From Thermodesulfobacteriota bacterium (GTDB lineage: Bacteria > Desulfobacterota > Desulfomonilia > UBA1062): DNA of 64,000 nt. Location: positions 1,444-65,443 of the forward strand of contig JAYEFR010000079.1 of assembly GCA_034716155.1 (NCBI GenBank), given 5' to 3'. The stretch's first letter is position 1, and each line of letters starts with the position of its first letter. Positions 18,693 through 60,913 of the stretch are shown here, piece after piece. The notes under the pieces were generated by a model that saw only the letters and a program-made list of their open reading frames with translations, made no database searches and was not told where the DNA came from. The position numbers and the translations under genes are program-made.

Positions 18693-18866
18693 CACTCGTA
18701 AAAAGTCGGATTTAGTTAATATGTCATTTCGAATATCAGGGAGATTGCTTGTATTTTCATCATGTTACATCGGAAAGATTTCTCACATTCGTTCGAAATG
18801 ACACATTAAGCAAGTTACTTTCCATTATGATGCCAACGTGTCGGCATAGTGGAGCTTTTTACGAGT
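18693..18866. repeat. Nested perfect inverted repeats: outer 12-nt arms ACTCGTAAAAAG/CTTTTTACGAGT, inner 12-nt arms TGTCATTTCGAA/TTCGAAATGACA
   Basis: Outer arms at 18694-18705 and 18855-18866. Inner arms at 18722-18733 and 18792-18803. Lies inside an 810-nt ORF-free region. Confidence 0.6.
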
Positions 18867-19372
18867 TTATCATTATCCACTACAGGTAAAAAAAGGATAA
18901 GTAAAATAGGGGTCGTAAAAAATAGGGGTCAAATCTTCGTTTGACTCTTGCTAAATAAATTGGGTGGGCCCGTCCACGAAATTATAAAATTCATCTTAAA
19001 CATAAGGGTAATGAAGGGGATGCCGCTGGGGGAAAGCGGGTCAAGTCTACGGTTGACCTTTGTTAGACAATCGTAAATATTCAAACGTAGACTTGATAAC
19101 CGTATAAAAGGTTTCACAAATTCATCGCAAAAGACGTTGTAGGAAACCAGGGGATGTCCGTGAAATATGGACATTTAAGCACTAAACCTTTCAGAACAGA
19201 TATGGCGCTCATATCAAAAGTCATAATTTCATGGACATCCCCTAAATGTTTTGAATCCGGGCTTTTTCAGGGCTCTGTTGCCTACCCCCTGTCTGATAGA
19301 AAACATTGGTGATAGACATATCTCTTTGATATTGGTATTATTTTTTTAAGGATAGCCGATATAGGAGAAAAT

Positions 19373-21025: not shown

Positions 21026-21664
21026 ATGCGAAGATTTGCCATTGGCGATATACATGGATGCCTAGATAAACTCGAGGACCTTCTGACTAAGATTAACGCC
21101 ACTTCCGATGATATCCTTATATTTTTGGGCGATTATATTGACCGGGGAAATAAATCCAAAGAGGTTATAGATCTGCTGATAGAAGTTGCATCAGAAACAA
21201 GATGTGTGTTTTTAAGGGGTAACCATGAAGACATGCTCCTGGAGTTTATTGAGTACGGTACAAACAGTCCCATGTATCTCTCCAATGGGGGGGATATGAC
21301 TATAGAATCGTATACAAAGGGGAGGCCTGATCAGAATATTGCTGATGCCCTGCCCGAGGCACATAAAAAATTCTTTGCTGACCTTAAGTGGTCATATGAA
21401 GATGATGACTATATATATGTGCATGCAGGTATAAAACCCGGTGTCCCTCTAAACTTACAGGAACATAGTGATCTTATATGGATAAGGGATGAGTTTGTAT
21501 CTTCTCCTACAGGTTTGAATAAAAAGGTGATATTCGGGCATAGCCCATTTACTATGCCACTTGTAAAAACAGATAAGATAGGTATTGACACAGGGGCCGG
21601 ATACGGGAGGGCGCTTACAGCAGTGAAGCTGCCTGAAATTGAGTTTCTCCAGTCTTTTGTATGA
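21026..21664 (+). CDS. Metallophosphoesterase (PPP-family Ser/Thr phosphatase-like)
   Basis: GDIHGC, GDYIDRG, GNHE motifs. 6-nt gap after the TPR gene. Confidence 0.8.
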   Translation: MRRFAIGDIHGCLDKLEDLLTKINATSDDILIFLGDYIDRGNKSKEVIDLLIEVASETRCVFLRGNHEDMLLEFIEYGTNSPMYLSNGGDMTIESYTKGRPDQNIADALPEAHKKFFADLKWSYEDDDYIYVHAGIKPGVPLNLQEHSDLIWIRDEFVSSPTGLNKKVIFGHSPFTMPLVKTDKIGIDTGAGYGRALTAVKLPEIEFLQSFV

Positions 21665-21930
21665 AAATAGGGATCAGTGAATAGTAAAAGAAGTTTTGGG
21701 TTTTGAGTGTTGAGTTTTGGGTGATTAAGAATAGTCGAGAGTCAAACTTCAGTGAATAGTACCAGAAAAAAAGGCGACCATCCTATCTGTAGGTATTACA
21801 ACGGACGACAGACAACGAACTACTGACAAGTATATGTACAGAACTAAAAAATCATTTATGGCTAAACATGTTTTCACCCCTGGTTGTGTCCGCTAGGCCA
21901 TGATGGTTTTATATAAATGGGGTTAAGTGT
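21661..21930 (+). repeat. Intergenic repeat family, copy A (module 1 + truncated module 2 + module 3)
   Basis: Starts at the stop codon with TGTATGAAAATAG. Module 1 (AGTGAATAGT...GTTTTGGGTTTTGAG...GTGATTAAGAATAGTCGAGAGTCAAACTTCAGTGAATAGTA) is about 95% identical to the reverse complement of 27790-27888. Confidence 0.7.
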
Positions 21931-23523: not shown

Positions 23524-23890
23524 AAGGTAATATATCCCCTCTATATGACTTTATTCGCCTCATACTTTTCGTTCTGTCTCCTAAAGATTTGCAATCATTC
23601 ACTGCGTTCATATATCACTATTAACGGTAAGAGAGAAGATTTACATAAGAATAAAAATATTTAGATATGCTACCAAGCCCCTTTACATGAAAACAGGGGT
23701 CGGGGATCAGGGGTTAGTTTTCAGGAAAGGCTATTTTCTCGGCCCGGGCATATTTTCATTCTTCGTGCCCAAAAGGCCTTGATGGTTTGTAATATTCAAA
23801 TTTAGAGAAGAATAGGCCGGAATTTTCAAAGGTTGTCTTCCATAATGAAACTCTTGATTCTTTAAGATACTTTCTGGTATTGCATTAGAT

Positions 23891-25587: not shown

Positions 25588-26736
25588 ATGCCTATGAATA
25601 TATCTAAAAGTGCCAAAAACATAAGACCCTTTTTGGTGATGGACATACTAGAGGCTGCAAATAAAATGGCGTCTTCCGGTTCAGATGTGATCCATTTGGA
25701 GGTGGGGGAGCCGGATTTCGATACACCTGAGTGTATTATAGACGCAGCACTTAAGGCCACCAGGGAGGGTAAGACCCATTATACCCATTCATTGGGTATA
25801 CCTGAATTGAGGGTTGCCATATCTGAACACTATAAATCTACATACAACGTAGATACAGACCCTGATCAGGTCTTGGTCACAGCCGGGTCGTCGGCCGCAC
25901 TGATGGTTGCATTTGCCATCCTTCTCGATAAAGATAGCGAGGTAATCATGTCAGATCCCCACTATGCGTGCTACCCAAACTTTGCAGAGATATTCTCTGC
26001 AAAGGTGGTGCGTATCACAACCCTAAGCGATGACCTGTTTCAATTAAACCCTGTTAAGGTAAAGAATGCCATAACCCCAAAGACAAAGGCTATATTGATA
26101 AATTCTCCAGCAAACCCCACAGGGGCTGTGTTAGATGATCCCCACATAAAGGACATCTCATCTTGTGGCCCTATAGTGATCTCGGATGAGATATACCATG
26201 GTCTTGTATATAAAGGTATCCCACATACCATACTCGAGTATACGGATAACGCTATAGTAATAAACGGCTTCTCCAAGGCGTATGCCATGACAGGGTGGCG
26301 TCTGGGTTGGGCAGTGCTGCCTAAGGAGCTTATAAGAACTGCACAAAAAATCCATCAGAACCTGATGATCTGTGCACCCTCTATCTCGCAATGGGCCGGG
26401 ATTGCTGCATTAAGGGAGGCATCTTTGGATGTTAAAGAGATGCGTAAGGTATTTGCCAGGCGAAGAAAAATTATGCTAGGGGAGATGGCAAGACAGGGAT
26501 TCAACGTTGAGGTAGAGCCTACAGGGGCTTTTTATGTATTGGTAAATATGAAACATATATCACATAATTCACATAAACTTGCCTTTGATATCTTGAAAAA
26601 TACCGGGGTTGGCGTAACCCCCGGAATAGACTTTGGCCCAAGTGCCGAGGGATACATCAGGTTCTCATATGCGAATTCCAAGGAAAAAATACTATCCGGG
26701 ATAGATAGGGTTGGCAAATATCTTAAGAGTCTATGA
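25588..26736 (+). CDS. Class I/II PLP-dependent aminotransferase (aspartate aminotransferase family)
   Basis: SKAYAMTGWRLGW PLP-lysine context. Confidence 0.85.
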   Translation: MPMNISKSAKNIRPFLVMDILEAANKMASSGSDVIHLEVGEPDFDTPECIIDAALKATREGKTHYTHSLGIPELRVAISEHYKSTYNVDTDPDQVLVTAGSSAALMVAFAILLDKDSEVIMSDPHYACYPNFAEIFSAKVVRITTLSDDLFQLNPVKVKNAITPKTKAILINSPANPTGAVLDDPHIKDISSCGPIVISDEIYHGLVYKGIPHTILEYTDNAIVINGFSKAYAMTGWRLGWAVLPKELIRTAQKIHQNLMICAPSISQWAGIAALREASLDVKEMRKVFARRRKIMLGEMARQGFNVEVEPTGAFYVLVNMKHISHNSHKLAFDILKNTGVGVTPGIDFGPSAEGYIRFSYANSKEKILSGIDRVGKYLKSL

Positions 26737-27311
26737 ATATAAAAATAAAAGATGCCAGGTATGTGGGGACTATCTATGATAACCTGAAGCCCATACCGGA
26801 AATTGCATTTATAGGCAGGTCTAATGTAGGGAAGTCCTCGCTGATAAATGCCTTGCTTCATAGAAAGTCTCTGGTAAAGACCAGTAAATCTCCGGGCAAG
26901 ACAAGAAATGTAAATTTTTTTCAGGTGGATTTCATAGGGCTGCCATCTGTCTATGTAGTGGATCTCCCGGGGTACGGCTATGCAAAGGTATCTAAGGCCA
27001 TGAAAAAAGATTGGCAATATATCGTGCAAAGGTATTTCACTACATTAAGAGACTTGAGGTTGGTAATTATACTCGTAGATATAAGAAGAGGCATAGAGAA
27101 AGAGGAGCTTTCTATCCTTAAAATGCTTGCGGATTCGCATATAAGATGTGTTGTCGCAGCAACAAAAATTGACAAAGTAGGTATATCCCAAAGACAAAAA
27201 AAGGCATTGGAAATCCAAAATGCCTTAGGCGAATTACCTGCACTGTGTTCTGCTGCATCAGGAGTCGGCATCCCCGATCTCTGGAAGGAGATAAAAACCG
27301 CCTTGTTATAA
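26733..27311 (+). CDS. engB: Ribosome biogenesis GTP-binding protein YihA/EngB
   Basis: GRSNVGKSSLINAL G1 motif. DLPGYG. Confidence 0.85.
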   Translation: MNIKIKDARYVGTIYDNLKPIPEIAFIGRSNVGKSSLINALLHRKSLVKTSKSPGKTRNVNFFQVDFIGLPSVYVVDLPGYGYAKVSKAMKKDWQYIVQRYFTTLRDLRLVIILVDIRRGIEKEELSILKMLADSHIRCVVAATKIDKVGISQRQKKALEIQNALGELPALCSAASGVGIPDLWKEIKTALL

Positions 27312-27888
27312 ACTGCCATGGCCTTTTCGGCCACAACGAAGGATGAAAATATATTTAGCCCTGAGCAGTCTTTTTGTTCTGTACTTATACCTGTCAGTAG
27401 TTTTTTTGCTCGTTGTCCGTTGTAAAACCTCCGGATAGGATAATCACCTTCCAATATACCACTGACAACTAACCACGGACAACGGACAAGTATTCTCATA
27501 TAAAGTGTATCCAGATTCCCCCTTTGAAGGGGGCCGGGGGGATGTCATTGCGAGGAGGTTTTTAGGCCGCCGTGGCAATCCCATTGGTTGCAGACACTTT
27601 GAGATTCTTCGCTTCGTGTGGATCCCCGGTTTGTCTTCGCTAAAGCTCGCAATGACAATATGGGTATTATGCAAAGGCCGATGAGGGCAAAAGGTCCCTA
27701 CATTTCCCATAAAACCATTTTTCTTCTATCTTTCGTCTTTAATCTATTGTTTTCTCGACTCTCTTTATCGTCTTGCTCTCTGTTACTATTCACTATTCAA
27801 TATTTTACTATTCACTGAAGTTTGACTCTCGACTATTCTTAATCACCCAAAACCCAAAACTCAAAACCCAAAACTTTTTTACTATTCA
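27302..27888 (-). repeat. Composite intergenic repeat array, copy B (modules 3, 2, internal hairpin element, AGTGAATAGT cluster, module 1), filling the convergent engB/oxidoreductase gap
   Basis: The reverse complement aligns module-by-module with copy A (21661-21930) and copy C (45461-45672). Both flanking stop codons lie inside repeat sequence. Confidence 0.7.
27341..27500 (-). mobile_element. MITE-like module 2 (about 160 nt) with terminal inverted repeats ATGA(A/G)AATA and internal 13-nt inverted repeat CGTTGTCCGTTGT/ACAACGGACAACG
   Basis: About 85-90% identical to 45464-45622 in reverse orientation. The termini are reverse complements of each other. Confidence 0.65.
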
Positions 27889-29184
27889 CTCTTCACTGTT
27901 TACTGTTATATGATCCGCCACCTTCATTGCAGATGAAAAGCTTATATCCCCTGAACAACCATCCCCTCTCACCGTATCACCCACAAAATAAAGCCCCTTA
28001 ATCTCTTTGCATACCACATCAGGCCTATTGGGTTTTGACTGCCTGGGTGTTAGCACGGTTCCGTTCATTATATGTGCCACCAGTTTCCTTTCCTTTTTCA
28101 GCTTAGGTAAAAATTCAGGAAACAGATTCGATATGGTAGCCTTCAGCCTTTGTTCAGCCTTGTCTGCCTCTTCAGGGTCCCCATCAAAGCCCCACGGCAA
28201 CATTATTCCCCAGGTGGATAAGTGCTTCCCGGGAGGTGTAAGGGTTGGATCGCTATTTGACTGGAACTTTGCCCATATAGGGATATCCACCCCTAATATC
28301 CCCGCCTTGATTTGAGAACCCGGAGCATCTGTTATAAAATCTATGGACAGCCCTGAGCTATGTTCTATCCCCTTACAATAAGTCACAAATGCCTTGTCAA
28401 AGACATCCTCTTTTATGACATCGAACAGCAAAGGCAGTCTTGCAGCGAAGATCACTTTATCAGATTCATATTTTTCTTTGTCTGTAACAACCCCCTTGAC
28501 TATAGAATTTTCTATTATAATATCTGTCACCTTTTCGCCTAAGTGTATCTCTCCGTTCTTTTCTATACGGGATCTCAATTTTGAAAATATCCGCCCGGAC
28601 CCGCCAACAGGCTCACCAACACCAACACCTGCAGCTAAAACCCTTTGAAGAAATTCAATCACCTCTCCTGCGCTTACCTTAGAAGGGTCAGAACACATAA
28701 CAGTCATACCCAAAAACGGCAAAAAAGCCTCTACTTCTTTATTATGAAACCACGAGTGGTAAAACTCCAAAAGGCTCTTATCATACCAATCGTAAGGATT
28801 TGCGCCCTTTATCTTTACCAACAATCTCAAGAGTGTGATCCTGCCGGAAAAACCAAGTATCTTCGTGGTGAGAAAGCCCAGGGGGCCCTCTGGCCTATTC
28901 CATAGGCTAGACTTAAAAATCAGCTTTGCACCCTTTGCTTCAGGTGTAAATTCTATCTCATCACCAAGCCTACGCATTACCTGATTGGCAATGCCCTTGT
29001 CGGCAAGTCTATGAGAGTGAGCCCCATATTCCCATGTATAGCCACCTTCATCCGTGAATGTACTCGCCCTGCCTCCTATAAGTGTAGATGCCTCGATTAC
29101 GAGCACACGTTTCTTAGAGTGTGCCAAAAGTGCTGCTACACTCATCCCCCCATAACCTGCTCCGACAACTATAGCATCAATCAT
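27886..29184 (-). CDS. NAD(P)/FAD-dependent oxidoreductase (phytoene desaturase / amine oxidase family)
   Basis: Start moved to MIDAIVVGAGYGG, which is preceded by AGGGAGG; the track start lies 22 codons upstream. GxGxxG FAD motif. Confidence 0.75.
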   Translation of the reverse strand: MIDAIVVGAGYGGMSVAALLAHSKKRVLVIEASTLIGGRASTFTDEGGYTWEYGAHSHRLADKGIANQVMRRLGDEIEFTPEAKGAKLIFKSSLWNRPEGPLGFLTTKILGFSGRITLLRLLVKIKGANPYDWYDKSLLEFYHSWFHNKEVEAFLPFLGMTVMCSDPSKVSAGEVIEFLQRVLAAGVGVGEPVGGSGRIFSKLRSRIEKNGEIHLGEKVTDIIIENSIVKGVVTDKEKYESDKVIFAARLPLLFDVIKEDVFDKAFVTYCKGIEHSSGLSIDFITDAPGSQIKAGILGVDIPIWAKFQSNSDPTLTPPGKHLSTWGIMLPWGFDGDPEEADKAEQRLKATISNLFPEFLPKLKKERKLVAHIMNGTVLTPRQSKPNRPDVVCKEIKGLYFVGDTVRGDGCSGDISFSSAMKVADHITVNSEE

Positions 29185-29600
29185 TATATCCTCCCTTTGA
29201 ATTATCCATAATAGACATACGTTTTGGCTATATAATTTCTTGTACATCAAGACTGACTTTTTGTCTATCTTATGATTTTGGAAGATTCATGCCTTAAAGA
29301 ATTTCTCTTGGGTTATGGAATCATATTGGACGGTGGTATTATTGATAAGATTAGCAGGATTCTTGGCGGAAATTATATGGTCCCAGTGACAAGTACATAC
29401 AAAAACATAAAAGGGCTGAAAGTCCTTGGATTATAGATTCCCTATTTACAACATTAAACGGCATAGGGTATGAAGGAAAAGACTTAAAACTTCCAGGTAA
29501 CATCCGGCAGGAAATTTTAAGTTATATGACAAAGAAGGTAGTACATTTATAGACATGAAGTTTTATCTATCTTAAATAAATCAAAGGAAACATCGAACTA

Positions 29601-38805: not shown

Positions 38806-38857
38806 TGCATTAAAGCTCATATCTACTCCATTGAATTGGGGTGGATATGGGTTTTTT

Positions 38858-38935
38858 ATATGAAAATAGGGGTCAGGGATCAGGGGGCCCAATAACATCC
38901 CCCCGGCCCCCTTCAAAGGGGGAATCTATCCGTGT
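38858..38935 (+). repeat. Short member of the ATGAAAATAG repeat family (copy D)
   Basis: TATGAAAATAGGGGTCAGGGATCAGGGGG...CCCCCCGGCCCCCTTCAAAGGGGGAATC. The second half is identical to the reverse complement of 27520-27550. Confidence 0.6.
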
Positions 38936-39126
38936 AGATTAAGGGATGGAGGGGTTCTTGAGATATACCTTCTATCGCGATTTGCTAATACATCCTTTGG
39001 CGGAGCTTAAAGGGGAACCGCTCCCTTATGTTTGAGCCCAAAGGGCGAGTTAGGGAGCGCCCGTAAGCAAGCCAAAAGGATGTATCAAAGAGCGATAAAA
39101 AGCAAGCGATAGAACCCTCATCCCGA

Positions 39127-39250
39127 AAATATTTTCATCTTTCGTTGTGAGCGGTAGGCCATGACCGTTTATATGAAAAAAGATATTTATATAGTTTTGT
39201 TGGTTTCATTGGTTTAAATGAAGTGAATAGACTTGTTCCTAGATAATGCC
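39127..39250 (+). repeat. Degenerate repeat-family fragments (module 3-like GTTGTGAGCGGTAGGCCATGACCGTTTATATGAAAAAAG plus AGTGAATAGACTTGT)
   Basis: Similar to 21885-21930 and 57645-57668. Confidence 0.45.
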
Positions 39251-44543: not shown

Positions 44544-45458
44544 ATGGAGCTGGTAAAATCAGGTACACATATTAATTTTATGAGTGCAAGAAAGATTGCT
44601 TATGCCCTTTCAGGGTTATTTATTATTCTAAGTATAATATCCCTATTCCTTTATAAAGGCCTCAATTATGGCATTGACTTTGCTGGCGGTACGTTGATTC
44701 AGGTAAGGTTCCCCAATGCAATTCGTGCGCAAGATATAAGAAATGCACTAAAGCCAATCGGTCTGGAAGGGGCACTTATTCAGGGTGTAGGTACCCTTAA
44801 AAACAATGAATTTCTTATAAGGACATCCATGAGCGATGAATCAACAAAGGGCTTCTCCGCCAAGTTAGAAAACACCTTACATACTGCCTTTGGAGAGACC
44901 AATGTGGATGTCCGTAGGATTGAGATGGTAGGCTCGACGGTAAGCAAAGACCTGAAGCAGAAGGGAATCCTGTCCCTGTTTTATGCCGGCATAGGGATCT
45001 TGATTTATGTATGGTGGCGATTTGAATTGAGATTTTCCCTGGGTGCTATTGTTGCCCTGATCCATGATGTGATTATCACCGTAGGGATATTTTCCATTAC
45101 AGGCAAAGAAGTAAGTCTGCCTATAATCGCGGCCCTGCTTACCATTGTGGGTTATTCCTTAAACGACACCATAGTGGTCTTTGATCGGATACGGGAAAAC
45201 ATGAAAAAACAGGGGAAAAATGTTGGGATCATAGAGTTATTAAACAGCAGTATAAACCAGACATTGAGCCGTACGCTCCTTACATCACTTACTACATTTT
45301 TAGTGGTATTTTGCCTGTTTATCTTTGGGGGTAGTGTAATACACAACTTTGCATTTGCCATGTTGATTGGTGTGCTTGTTGGTACATATTCTTCAATATT
45401 TGTGGCAAGCCCTGTGGTCTTACTGCTGGCCGGTAATAAAGATAAGAAGCGCGGTTAG
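44544..45458 (+). CDS. secF: Protein translocase subunit SecF
   Basis: GIDFAGGT and a six-TM domain. Confidence 0.9.
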   Translation: MELVKSGTHINFMSARKIAYALSGLFIILSIISLFLYKGLNYGIDFAGGTLIQVRFPNAIRAQDIRNALKPIGLEGALIQGVGTLKNNEFLIRTSMSDESTKGFSAKLENTLHTAFGETNVDVRRIEMVGSTVSKDLKQKGILSLFYAGIGILIYVWWRFELRFSLGAIVALIHDVIITVGIFSITGKEVSLPIIAALLTIVGYSLNDTIVVFDRIRENMKKQGKNVGIIELLNSSINQTLSRTLLTSLTTFLVVFCLFIFGGSVIHNFAFAMLIGVLVGTYSSIFVASPVVLLLAGNKDKKRG

Positions 45459-45463
45459 ATTTG

Positions 45464-45622
45464 TATGAAAATAGTTGTCAGTTGTCCGTAGTCAGTTGTC
45501 AGTGGTATACTGGAGGGTGATCATCCTATTGGGAGATTTTACAACGGACAACGGGCCACGGACTACTGACAAATATAAGTACAGAACTAAAAGACCACTC
45601 CGGGCTAAATATATTTTCATCC
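45464..45622 (+). mobile_element. MITE-like module 2, copy C (159 nt, terminal inverted repeats ATGAAAATA)
   Basis: Begins 6 nt after the secF stop with TATGAAAATAGTTGTCAG and ends CTAAATATATTTTCATCC. Module 3-like tail to 45672. Confidence 0.65.
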
Positions 45623-45672
45623 TTGATTGTGCCTGCCAGGCCGTAAGGACTATTGATCAAAGGCCGTTTATA

Positions 45673-46332
45673 TTAATCCTCTAATTTAAAGGTGAATGTG
45701 ACCTCTTTTTGTGACGCGACGGCCACACCACTTTTTTTTGCTGGGATAAATTTGGCCTTGTCAAGAGCGCGCATGGCAGCACGATCAAGACGAAGATTCC
45801 CGCTTGAGCTTATAACCCCTATCCTTCCATGGGTACCGTCTTTCAAGACTTCAACAGAAAGCATAACTGAACCCTGTTCACCATGCCTCCTCGAATAAAC
45901 AGGATATCTAGGCATTGGCAGATCGGCAATTACAGCAGGAGTATTTACACCCTTTTCCTCAAGTGCACCATCAGTGCTTTCATGCTTATATGCCTGGTCT
46001 ACCTTGCAAACCCTGGTTTCTGACCTGTGATCCTCATGTTTTACTACCTGAGCTTCATTAAGCGGTATATCCTTTTTTTCTTGGACCTTCCTCTGTACTT
46101 GCCTGTCTTTCGTTTCTCTTTGTTTCTCCAGATTAGATACATTCACACTCTTTTCCGACTGGCCCTTAGAACAGACCTGAGCCTCTACCGGATGGAGAAT
46201 ACTAAGCCTTACAACAGATACACCTTTTTTGTATATCACCTTAGCATCATGATATGAAGGGGATACCAAAAACAGCCCTATATGAATGATGAGTGCGATA
46301 CAAAAGGGCAAGATAAAATCAGAAAACCTCAT
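45673..46332 (-). CDS. tonB: Energy transducer TonB
   Basis: N-terminal TM helix, K/E/Q-rich linker, C-terminal TonB domain (YPVYSRRHGEQGSV...). Confidence 0.75.
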   Translation of the reverse strand: MRFSDFILPFCIALIIHIGLFLVSPSYHDAKVIYKKGVSVVRLSILHPVEAQVCSKGQSEKSVNVSNLEKQRETKDRQVQRKVQEKKDIPLNEAQVVKHEDHRSETRVCKVDQAYKHESTDGALEEKGVNTPAVIADLPMPRYPVYSRRHGEQGSVMLSVEVLKDGTHGRIGVISSSGNLRLDRAAMRALDKAKFIPAKKSGVAVASQKEVTFTFKLED

Positions 46333-47490: not shown

Positions 47491-47549
47491 TGCCGTTTTT
47501 CATCCTCTATTAGCACTGACCCTGGTCCGCGGAGTCAGAAATTCAATAT

Positions 47550-47712
47550 CTTTATGGGCAGGTCTTCCGGCTTCCGGATCATCCTACTCACCGCGCCTTC
47601 CCACCTTTTCGGGCAGTGGCATTTAAGCGGCCTTCGTCCCCGGTTACAGCGGCGGGCCCGCGACGGACTTGCACCGTCTTCCCCTACGCCCTCACGGACT
47701 ACCCATAACCAA
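47550..47712 (-). promoter_or_regulatory. Cobalamin (B12) riboswitch aptamer
   Basis: The minus-strand RNA ...GGGGAAGACGGUGCAAGUCCGUCGCGGGCCCGCCGCUGUAACCGGGGACGAAGGCC...AAUGCCACUGCCCGAAAAGGUGGGAAGGCGCGG...CCGGAAGACCUGCCC matches the GGGAA-nCGGUG-AA-UCCG...CCCGC-GCUGUAA core, the B12 box GCCACUG/GGGAAGGC, and the 3' CCGGAAGACCUGCC pairing element. Confidence 0.8.
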
Positions 47713-47833
47713 ATCCCAAGGTATAACAAAGAGATATCAGGCGTCAACAATAAATCACCACAATTGTTTCCACAAAAATACAACCACAAAAAATTTTAAT
47801 CCCAAGAGATGAAAAAATTTTGCATATTTATAG

Positions 47834-48660: not shown

Positions 48661-48700
48661 AAAAAAAAAGGCGCCCCATTTAATGGGGCGCCTTTTTTTA
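48661..48700. terminator. Bidirectional intrinsic terminator
   Basis: A9-GGCGCCCCA-ttta-ATGGGGCGCC-T7. Confidence 0.75.
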
Positions 48701-57510: not shown

Positions 57511-57644
57511 CTTCCCTCCTAACTCTGCCTGTCTCTTGGAATATTTCTCATTATTATAGCTGATCACAAAAAAAGGCAAGCACCATCATTCTTTATAAAC
57601 GATCATACAACCCGTCATGCCTGCTTAAACAGGCACAACCAAAG

Positions 57645-57700
57645 ATGAAAATAGTGAATAGACTTGTCACTTCGCAGTGAATCCTGCGTAATCCCGAACC
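57645..57700 (+). repeat. Repeat-family fragment (GATGAAAATAGTGAATAGACTTGTCAC...)
   Basis: Shares the ATGAAAATAG end and the AGTGAATAGAC motif with 39225-39238. Lies in the 166-nt larE/HAD spacer. Confidence 0.5.
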
Positions 57701-57746
57701 ACAGTAATGGTAGGTTATCTGCTTTTTCGAATCTGAGAAAAAGGCT

Positions 57747-60487: not shown

Positions 60488-60616
60488 CCCTACCTCCCTG
60501 AATTATGCAATCTTACATAGATCTATTTAAATATCAAAACCAATCTGACAATAGTCATGTCTATTACAGGAAAAGGGGTTGCATATAAACCCGCATGTCC
60601 TTTTGAACGCAACCAA

Positions 60617-60692
60617 GGATGAAAACATGCCCGTGATGAAAAAATAGCCATCCCTGAAAACCGGCCCCCAGTCCCTGACAACTATTTTCATA
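60617..60692 (-). repeat. Short MITE-like copy F (terminal inverted repeats ATGAAAATAG / CATGTTTTCATCC)
   Basis: The reverse complement reads TATGAAAATAGTTGTCAGGGACTGGGGGCCGG...CATGTTTTCATCC. In the larC/livH divergent spacer. Confidence 0.55.
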
Positions 60693-60913
60693 TAATCCTG
60701 CATGGCCGCGGGGCAAAAAGGTGTACCTTCTTTTAAATTTGACTTATCGCTTGCTAAAAATAACTATTGCCTTAAGCCAAAAACCCTGTTATAAATTGCA
60801 GATACTGGAATGAAATGGATTTATTATAATAATCTTTTTATAGCTTGGTATTTGGCTAAATCTTAAAGAAGTATCTTTAGAAAAAGGCTCGCTGTGCTGA
60901 ATAGGATGGTCTA

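Follow-up and report, generated by a model that had tools for sequence, protein, structure and literature searches.

The window analysed here, a stretch of 64,000 nt from a Thermodesulfobacteriota bacterium (assembly GCA_034716155.1, contig JAYEFR010000079.1, positions 1,444 to 65,443), holds one family of repeats as seven intergenic copies and one pair of end-like fragments. In our reading these repeats are very probably non-autonomous transposable elements of the miniature inverted-repeat kind (MITEs) derived from an insertion sequence (IS) of the IS110 family with the architecture of the IS1111 group. The copies are 109-313 nt long and have no coding capacity of their own. Every copy lies between open reading frames (ORFs), and the neighbours are housekeeping genes: a phosphoesterase, a DnaJ-like protein, a GGDEF regulator, xseA, a GTPase, an amine oxidase, tRNA-Val/Asp, a thiI-like gene and secDF. 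The features are listed below on the strand that gives ATGAAAATAG...TATTTTCAT; the parental transposase is encoded in the opposite sense. E values refer to a profile of the end segment, which was built on copies from other genomes and gave six significant matches and one marginal match in the window.

21656..21913, + strand: copy 1, a complete MITE of ~258 nt (profile match at 21871-21917, E = 2e-4)
23682..23790, + strand: copy 2, a short 109-nt MITE located between two divergent genes, the GGDEF regulator gene and xseA (profile E = 0.18)
27308..27504, - strand: copy 3, a MITE of ~197 nt (profile E = 1.4e-11)
27505..27888, - strand: a composite of other small repeats that adjoins copy 3, with no recognisable IS ends bounding it
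38860..39172, + strand: copy 4, a complete MITE of 313 nt (profile E = 5e-10)
45460..45671, + strand: copy 5, a complete MITE, 212 nt long, immediately following the secF stop
57596..57654, - strand: copy 6, a left end only (profile E = 1.9e-7)
60586..60695, - strand: copy 7, a complete, profile-supported MITE of 110 nt with an orthologous copy in the relative L114
18902..18931, + strand: end-like fragments, two AAAATAGGGGTC, which resemble the right-end repeat and the start of heptamer cargo

An earlier note on this DNA had proposed a repeat family with at least eight sites; the family is real and far beyond chance, but that count was too high. When the window was compared with itself by BLAST and gap-free repeat finding, 21665-21924, 27291-27901 (reverse strand) and 45460-45673 matched one another over 97-217 nt at 75-93% identity, and shorter matches were found at 23683-23791, 60584-60695, 38890-38927 and 39126-39173. 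Five occurrences of the best-conserved 19-mer, ATTTTCATCCTTCGTTGTG, were counted in the window at up to three mismatches, compared with zero in 100 shuffles, and a longer gapped pattern occurs four times, again with zero in shuffles. Two of the sites counted separately (38858-38935 and 39127-39250) belong to one element, being the opposite ends of the 313-nt copy at 38860-39172, while 23696-23726, 57645-57700 and 60617-60692 are inner parts of the copies at 23682-23790, ~57596-57654 and beyond, and 60586-60695.

Alignment of copies from the window and other loci gives, on the listed strand, TTTAT and ATGAAAATAG, a variable insert, cTATTTTCAT-CYTTSGTTGTG, a short GC-rich hairpin and CATG-NNN-GTTTAT. 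The earlier note had described a mosaic of three modules with ATGAAAATAG termini; what the alignment resolves instead is a pair of IS110-family (IS1111-like) ends around variable cargo. Module 3 together with TATTTTCAT makes up, on the reverse strand, an IS left end of ~60 nt, and ATGAAAATAG with TTTAT before it forms the right end (~14 nt). Modules 1 and 2 are cargo, enclosed by the inverted repeat ATGAAAATA/TATTTTCAT. That repeat is genuine but had been placed at the termini, whereas it is sub-terminal: the element runs on for ~45 nt on the left (GTTGTG, the hairpin and CATG-NNN-GTTTAT) and for ~5 nt on the right (TTTAT). It is 9 bp long, and up to 11 bp at locus L004; the same pair is present in the window copies. 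An integron attC site (GTTRRRY) was considered for the GTTAG/GTTAT ends and rejected, the ends being inconsistent and the context one of housekeeping genes.

The cargo of the MITEs is 0-400 nt long and stands in place of a transposase gene and non-coding region. It consists of heptamer-like tandem repeats, hairpins and small repeats. Minimal MITEs have an 18-nt loop, which by eye resembles the IS sequence beside the right-end repeat, as would be expected of an internal deletion.

The left-end hairpin varies in sequence from copy to copy while its pairing is kept. Among twenty-one sequences, 93.9% of cells are paired and there are eight double changes, values that none of 500 shuffles reached. 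The hairpin is thus maintained by covariation, and it is retained in every MITE. A left-end variant at L116 3640-3665, orthologous to window 27308-27350, reads TTTCCATCTTTCG directly followed by TTTATAA and has no 24-nt TTGTG-hairpin-CATGGCAG segment. This is the sole such case among the sequences compared, and it represents either a secondary deletion or a hairpin-less ancestral end; its left extension would be ~7-8 nt. Since the extra DNA of the left end is essentially the hairpin, and the L116 variant restores an extension of 7-8 nt, the comparison suggests that the hairpin was an insertion that became part of the donor.

Individual copies follow this plan to different degrees. In copy 1, the phosphoesterase ORF has its TGA stop within the right-end repeat ATGAAAATAG (21661-21670); the cargo is made up of heptamer-like runs (AGTGAAT and GTTTTGG/GTTTTGA) and half of the module-2 hairpin, and the left end (21868-21913) reads CATGTTTTCACCCCTGGTTGTG-TCCGCTAGGCC-ATGATGGTTTTATA on the + strand. 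Copy 2 opens with CTTTAC followed by ATGAAAACAG, continues with GGGGTCG/GGGATCA heptamers and closes with a degenerate left end, ATATTTTCATTCTTCGTG-CCCAAAAGGCC-TTGATGGTTTGT. It matches 60584-60695 at 73%, and its right boundary (...GGTTTGT, then AATATTC) was set by the onset of homology with L116. Copy 3 has a degenerate right-end repeat, TATATGAGAATAC, module-2 cargo and then TATTTTCATCCTTCGTTGTG-GCCGAAAAGGC-CATGGCAGTTTAT; its GTTTATAA end provides the TAA with which the GTPase ORF 26733-27311 stops. Copy 4 sits just 3' of a terminator-like hairpin and T-run downstream of tRNA-Asp, flanked by the 12-nt direct repeat TTTATATGAAAA at 38855-38866 and 39168-39179, within which its boundaries can slide. 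Copy 5 consists of TTTGT and ATGAAAATAG, 138 nt of cargo, ATTTTCATCCTTGATTGTG, an extended hairpin and GCCGTTTAT. Copy 6 reads TAAAC-GATCATACAACCCGTCATG-CCTGCTTAAACAGG-CACAACCAAAGATGAAAATAG on the + strand and then AGTGAAT-type cargo; no clear right end was found for it, with a possible degenerate one near 57721-57739. Copy 7, also on the + strand, reads TAAAC-CCGCATG-TCCTTTTGAA-CGCAACCAAGGATGAAAAC, cargo and CTATTTTCATATAA. The fragments at 18902..18931 have no left end nearby and no profile match in their region, and their membership of the family is uncertain.

The cargo of copy 5, made of TTGTCAG/TTGTCCG heptamers, folds into a long hairpin with imperfections (z = -4.1). A module-2 hairpin is significant in this 45.5-kb copy, but not in the 27.4-kb copy (z = -0.5), and the 21.8-kb copy has one arm only. 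The earlier note's statement that copies overlap neighbouring stop codons stands for the ORFs ending at 21664, 27311 and 27886; the secF stop (45456-45458) adjoins its element and lies outside it. Read by eye, the cargo reading frames are not kept between copies 3 and 5, and a candidate small hydrophobic peptide on the reverse strand of copy 3 (MKIYLAL...) was dropped on seeing its frame lost in copy 5.

Several other small repeats share these spacers. The composite beside copy 3 carries module-1 heptamer runs from the stop codon of ORF 27886-29250 on, and L116 has a shorter, partly different version of it. An inverted-repeat element of ~90-115 nt with ends GTCATTGCGAG/GTCATTGCGAGC...CTCGCAATGAC lies at 27545-27660, in the same spacer as the MITE, and another of similar size and end style, GTCATTTCGAA...TTCGAAATGAC, lies in a MITE-bearing spacer at 18724-18812. 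A 38-nt repeat, CCCCCGGCCCCCTTCAAAGGGGGAAT/CAATGACATCCCCCCGGCCCCCTTCAAAGGGGGAATCT, is 97% identical between 27513-27550 and 38890-38927; several more copies are found at L117 11300-11470, in the secF-tonB spacer, and its behaviour is that of a tiny, independent repeat lying inside MITE cargo. The 37-nt near-perfect palindrome (97%) at 48663-48699, between TPR and EamA genes, is unrelated to the MITE family.

We scanned the 20-mer TATTTTCATCYTTSGTTGTG exactly against one genome per species and obtained at least 114 loci. Hosts among the loci listed include Calothrix, Nostoc, Scytonema, Chlorogloeopsis, Syntrophus, Smithella and Desulfobacterales, as well as an Acidobacteria gp2 metagenome-assembled genome (MAG), an Omnitrophota MAG, Victivallaceae, Spirochaetota, Syntrophomonas and others. 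Features on which the search did not depend recur throughout these loci: GAAAAT as the partner repeat, the hairpin, CATG and a terminal TTTAT-like sequence. A viral scan gave three matches, two of them in giant-virus bins, and was uninformative.

A search for an insertion sequence with inverted repeats matching ATGAAAATAG, which the earlier note had proposed as a check, was positive and led to the parent type. When ORFs within 3 kb upstream of 190 conserved-end cores were clustered, only one ORF family recurred between the ends across taxa: an IS110-type ORF of 417-446 aa on the opposite strand. Six of the at least 114 loci have a 417-446-aa ORF between both repeat ends. The transposase ORFs of L004 and L081 match PF01548 DEDD_Tnp_IS110 (E = 6e-20 and 4e-32) and, as the C-terminal Transposase_20 domain, PF02371 (E = 6e-16 and 6e-19), and both domains are precomputed for 120 of the 120 homologues listed. 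More than 7,900 homologues are present in public assemblies, typically on contigs of ~1.6-2 kb. In a plasmid search the relatives of the transposase were at most 42% identical and annotated as 'IS110 family transposase', with no named IS among them.

Full-length elements were found in Syntrophus, other Thermodesulfobacteriota, a Victivallaceae MAG and one cyanobacterium, and are 1,589-1,701 bp long. Read in the direction of the transposase, they begin with TAAC-CCCCATG, the hairpin, CACAACGAAGG and ATGAAAATA, followed by ~100 nt and the transposase gene; after the gene come ~215 nt of non-coding DNA and then TATTTTCAT-ATAAA. The left-end consensus of the parent is TAA(A)C, NNN-CATG, a GC-rich hairpin, CACAACSAAGG and ATGAAAATA. 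The distance from the left end to the ATG is about 100-125 nt (93-103 nt from the left-end core), and the stop codon lies 213-218 nt from the right-end repeat TATTTTCATATAAA (a non-coding region of ~215-230 nt). The spacing of TATTTTCATATAAA, the hairpin, CATG and TAAC all recur in the full elements though they lay outside the search pattern. A conserved GAGTGAGTCACGGTAA motif ~25 nt inside the left sub-terminal repeat is present in all Syntrophus-type elements (L045 1811-1790, reverse strand; L072 ~1640-1660) and may be a promoter or operator of the transposase gene.

The limits of the mobile unit can be read from three IS lineages in which the same IS occupies four to five sites. Copies within a lineage are 99.7-100% identical from TAAC through CATATAAA (1,589-1,615 bp) and unrelated immediately outside these boundaries. 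In the L134 lineage, rare left-end variants, CACAAAGAAGCATG, are present at every site. Because identity runs from TAAC to CATATAAA and the rare variants accompany the element everywhere, the ends travel with the IS: the shared ends lie inside the mobile unit. The window repeats keep both IS ends and have lost the gene, which makes them MITEs. The earlier note's view of a non-autonomous, MITE-like family is borne out by this; its suggestion of a REP-type element (repetitive extragenic palindromic sequence) is not, the parent transposase being of another class with no RAYT associated.

Full-length elements also carry a candidate guide. Their non-coding region contains a conserved ~125-nt block with two predicted stem-loops, large internal loops and four compensated pairs. 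One loop reads GCGCGT-NNNN-TAAC-ATGACC, and its NNNN agrees with the bases before TAAC in the left flank. In a tally by eye of about two dozen distinct flanks, all agree with the guide at position -1, including three elements whose guide has A or T rather than C there; where a guide ends in GAC the flank does too, and for those ending in AAC the same mostly holds. In the second loop are GCACAACGAA, which is identical to the motif past the hairpin in the left end, and AATATAAA, which is close to the right-end terminus. The non-coding region also holds GGGCACAACGAA, the same 12-mer as in the left end. This pattern is as expected of a bridge or seek RNA and suggests that targeting is guided by RNA.

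We then compared the window with contigs of its relatives, of which L116 shares 96-97% nucleotide identity with the window and the others 90-94% SecF identity. A metagenome scan with XseA returned a single relative. In the spacer between tRNA-Asp and thiI, L117 and L119 have an empty site, TTTTTATATGAAAAAG, reading ...GGGTTTTTGTTTTTATATGAAAAAGATAC..., where the window has copy 4. The window reads TTTTTATATGAAAATAG, ~290 nt and ...CCGTTTATATGAAAAAAGATAT there, with the 12-nt repeat TTTATATGAAAA at both sides. The spacer between secF and tonB, the site of copy 5, is occupied in L120, L122 and L117 by elements with the same outer sequences and wholly different cargo. In the lineage L116-L119 (~96% identity) the canonical left end is absent at three orthologous places. 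The differing flanks of the copies, together with an empty site and other contents elsewhere in a ~96%-identity relative, agree with the earlier note in speaking for independent insertions and not for a single duplicated region.

Across twenty-four junctions of the window's subfamily, there is a strong left-junction preference (consensus read by eye) for (T)TTTCATA followed by TAAA(C), a target similar to the right end of the element itself. A target is thereby restored beside a resident copy, which would explain both tandem arrays and the reoccupation of the same spacer by different members in sister strains. Head-to-tail arrays are in fact present in several genomes, with the precise junction GTTTAT directly followed by NNGAAAAT; in L040, for example, 95-nt units meet at GGTTTAT followed by CCGAAAAT.

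The relatives differ from the window in other ways as well. At L116 5452-5621, compared with window 29342, there is a 171-nt hairpin element of CTTGTCC-type heptamers with ATT on both sides that is absent from the window, a second, unrelated small mobile or slippage-prone element of the lineage. A cobalamin riboswitch (107 bits) lies at window 47540-47721 (- strand) directly upstream of exbB-exbD-tonB, and also in L120, judged by gene spacing. L117, L118 and L119 have a gene for a 678-aa TonB-dependent receptor between the riboswitch region and exbB (L117 13178-15214). The receptor gene is thus present or absent among close strains.

In the Calothrix, Nostoc and Scytonema loci the cargo consists of tandem heptamers (GCAACAG, GGAGTTC, GGAGTGA and TTGTTAG). 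Strong 7-periodicity was found in 23 of 93 distinct cargos, all twenty-three cyanobacterial, and in none of the ninety-three after shuffling; the cargo of the window is imperfectly 7-periodic (0.76-0.81). A ~130-nt cargo module (cccgtaagcaagcc...gagcgat...cccgaaaa; window 39005-39125) recurs at ~82% identity in copy 4, in the secF-tonB copy of L120 and many times in MAG AUK176 (loci listed for it: L010, L024, L050, L073, L085 and L097). Over 39005-39217 the cargo of copy 4 is 82.5% identical to L024. As the module is common to copy 4, L120 and AUK176, whole cargo blocks move from genome to genome along with the ends.

The analysis shows common ends, the limits of the mobile unit, an empty-site polymorphism and a strong site preference, and descent from an IS110-family element of IS1111 type is very probable. 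Several observations weigh on the other side. The empty site at the position of copy 4 could equally be explained as a precise deletion between the 12-nt repeats. Conservation of the 20-mer across phyla is partly a selection effect of the exact-match search. Correspondence of the guide is confined to its left-flank segment; neither the 5' side of the first guide loop nor the AATATAAAAAT segment showed a consistent match to the right flanks, and the guide RNA itself has the status of a prediction. No IS110-family ORF was found by tblastn in ~100 kb of relatives' contigs or in the window, where the earlier note too had seen no transposase. The sole full-length element found in the same sequencing run as the window (L148, SRR26901925) has the guide CAAC-TAAC and is probably not the partner of the window MITEs, whose junctions read ATA-TAAAC. 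Lastly, the left end of the parent extends ~45 nt past the sub-terminal repeat and includes a covarying hairpin, compared with ~7 bp in IS1111 members such as ISEc11 (PMC11187229). This ~7-bp extension is a habit of the group and not a formal definition.

Alternatively, the repeats could be functional signals in RNA or DNA, such as terminators, mRNA-stabilising 3' structures or small RNAs, which are selected in place and are not primarily mobile. In our own reading of the ORF table, five of the seven copies come directly after the stop of a gene in the same direction, and copy 4 is located within the T-run belonging to the terminator-like hairpin downstream of tRNA-Asp. The hairpin covaries, and its G-U wobble pairs (columns 17/33, 19/31 and 22/28) all fall on one strand. 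However, the segment forms one end of an element that encodes a transposase, its presence varies among close strains, and no U-run follows the hairpin. Rfam 15 returned no match over the window repeats at the gathering score, and neither the window nor the minimal copies matched a family even at E = 10, where minimal copies and the full element gave chance-level hits or none. We consider this explanation improbable, while a secondary, exapted role of the hairpin segment may exist. A hammerhead or other ribozyme core was also looked for; there was no motif by eye and no model match.

A second possibility is that the palindrome is an independent, REP-like sequence serving as a landing site for IS110-family elements, in which case full elements would be an IS in the loop and the 'ends' would be target. 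IS110-family elements do choose repeated palindromes (PMC11208160, PMC12288879), with REPs so used by IS621 and ISPpu9/10, and a target-matching guide would be expected to hold the left end's 12-mer GGGCACAACGAA, as the non-coding region does. Independent targets within one genome would nevertheless differ, as the hairpins of the seven window copies do, whereas copies of the same IS at other sites share identical 41-nt left ends, including CACAAAGAAGCATG, and identity stops exactly at TAAC and ATATAAA. The likeness, by eye, of the 18-nt loop in minimal MITEs to IS sequence beside the right-end repeat also argues for internal deletion. These observations largely refute the landing-site explanation, and we give it very little credence. 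Least credible of all is an IS200/IS605-type origin (palindrome-associated or REP/RAYT) by single-stranded insertion 3' of a fixed pentanucleotide, here TTTAT, via sub-terminal hairpins: a constant TTTAT flank on one side and GTTTAT at the other end, hairpin-bearing ends, head-to-tail arrays and the lack of a conventional variable target duplication would all suit it, but the only protein recurring between the ends of the 190 cores is the IS110-family DEDD transposase, with nothing to indicate a Y1 transposase or TnpB, and the fixed flank is explained by IS110-type site preference and the shared core.

If the repeats are MITEs of an IS110-family parent, what is known of that family suggests how they would move. 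The recombinase of a full-length element would act in trans, together with a guide RNA from the non-coding right end of that element. The element would form a circular intermediate, and recombination with the target would take place where the ends of this circle are joined. The expected circle junction would be TATTTTCATATAAAC-NNN-CATG..., and a partner element for the window's MITEs would be expected to have the guide ATA-TAAAC where Syntrophus elements have GAAC-TAAC. The predicted guide appears to match right-end AATATAAA as well as GCACAACGAA, which lies past the hairpin, so that the donor hairpin would need to be extruded or looped out. One speculative and, to our minds, rather doubtful account is thus that this clade gained a ~22-25-nt hairpin in a left extension of normally 7 bp, that the guide reads both sides of it, and that the hairpin is extruded during recombination. 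Were this true, hairpin extrusion would be a structural requirement not described for bridge/seek-RNA recombinases.

There is active research on IS110/IS1111 recombinases as enzymes for programmable genome editing, and this family offers natural, abundant minimal donors in which arbitrary cargo is enclosed by a left end of ~60 nt and a right end of ~14 nt. The MITE ends suggest what the recombinases require in cis and draw attention to the conserved left-end hairpin. If our interpretation holds, they amount to a phylum-spanning natural set of minimal donors mobilised in trans, and the heptamer arrays long known from heterocystous cyanobacteria may be part of their repeat-rich cargo. The MITE family also explains the dense intergenic repeats of an uncultured Thermodesulfobacteriota lineage (a sediment bacterium), displays rapid turnover at fixed spacer sites between strains of ~96% identity, and links similar repeats of cyanobacteria, Acidobacteria, Omnitrophota and Syntrophales to one type of transposon. 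For annotation, it matters that the copies overlap stop codons and create spurious small ORFs.

Among known systems, the closest likeness is to the IS1111 group (ISEc11, IS1111, IS4321/IS5075 and ISPa11). Like these, the parent elements have a DEDD transposase with PF01548 and PF02371 and sub-terminal repeats within 7-17 bp. They have a short left end and, downstream of the gene, a long non-coding right end of predicted structure with putative target-matching segments, and they appear to insert in a specific orientation at a preferred sequence with no conventional duplication. A short left end, a long non-coding right end and sub-terminal repeats are the hallmark of the group (PMC11208160, PMC11187229). 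By comparison, REP/BIME and REPIN sequences with RAYT and the MITEs of the Correia, ERIC and RUP types are likewise short, intergenic, hairpin-forming and multi-copy, but the window family has no GTAG-type REP head, no TA-duplicating terminal inverted repeats and no RAYT, and its parent transposase is of another class. Tandem heptamers in cyanobacteria (short tandemly repeated repetitive sequences, STRR) and small dispersed repeats in minitransposons were reportedly described by Mazel in 1990 and Elhai in 2008. The cargo of our cyanobacterial loci is likewise made of tandem heptamers, while the heptamers of the window are degenerate. Our literature searches found no paper with the 18-mers and none linking STRR, MITE and IS110.

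The earlier note had taken the family for an undescribed kind of element. Its parent family can now be named, and derivatives of that family are on record. A laboratory mini-IS of ISEc11 with only 50 and 46 bp of its ends is mobilised in trans by transposase and seekRNA (PMC11187229), and the window's copies most likely move in this way too. MITEPpu9, of ISPpu9 from Pseudomonas putida, is a MITE of an IS110-family element with a defined small-RNA gene and eight copies in one species (PMC12288879). Both resemble the window repeats in having IS110-family ends around cargo and in being moved, or thought to be moved, by a transposase supplied in trans. The window family differs from MITEPpu9 in its variable, mostly repetitive cargo, its seven copies in 64 kb and its relatives in many phyla. 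Non-autonomous IS110-family elements are therefore already known from MITEPpu9, and what stands out here is their abundance, their presence in many phyla and their unusual left end.

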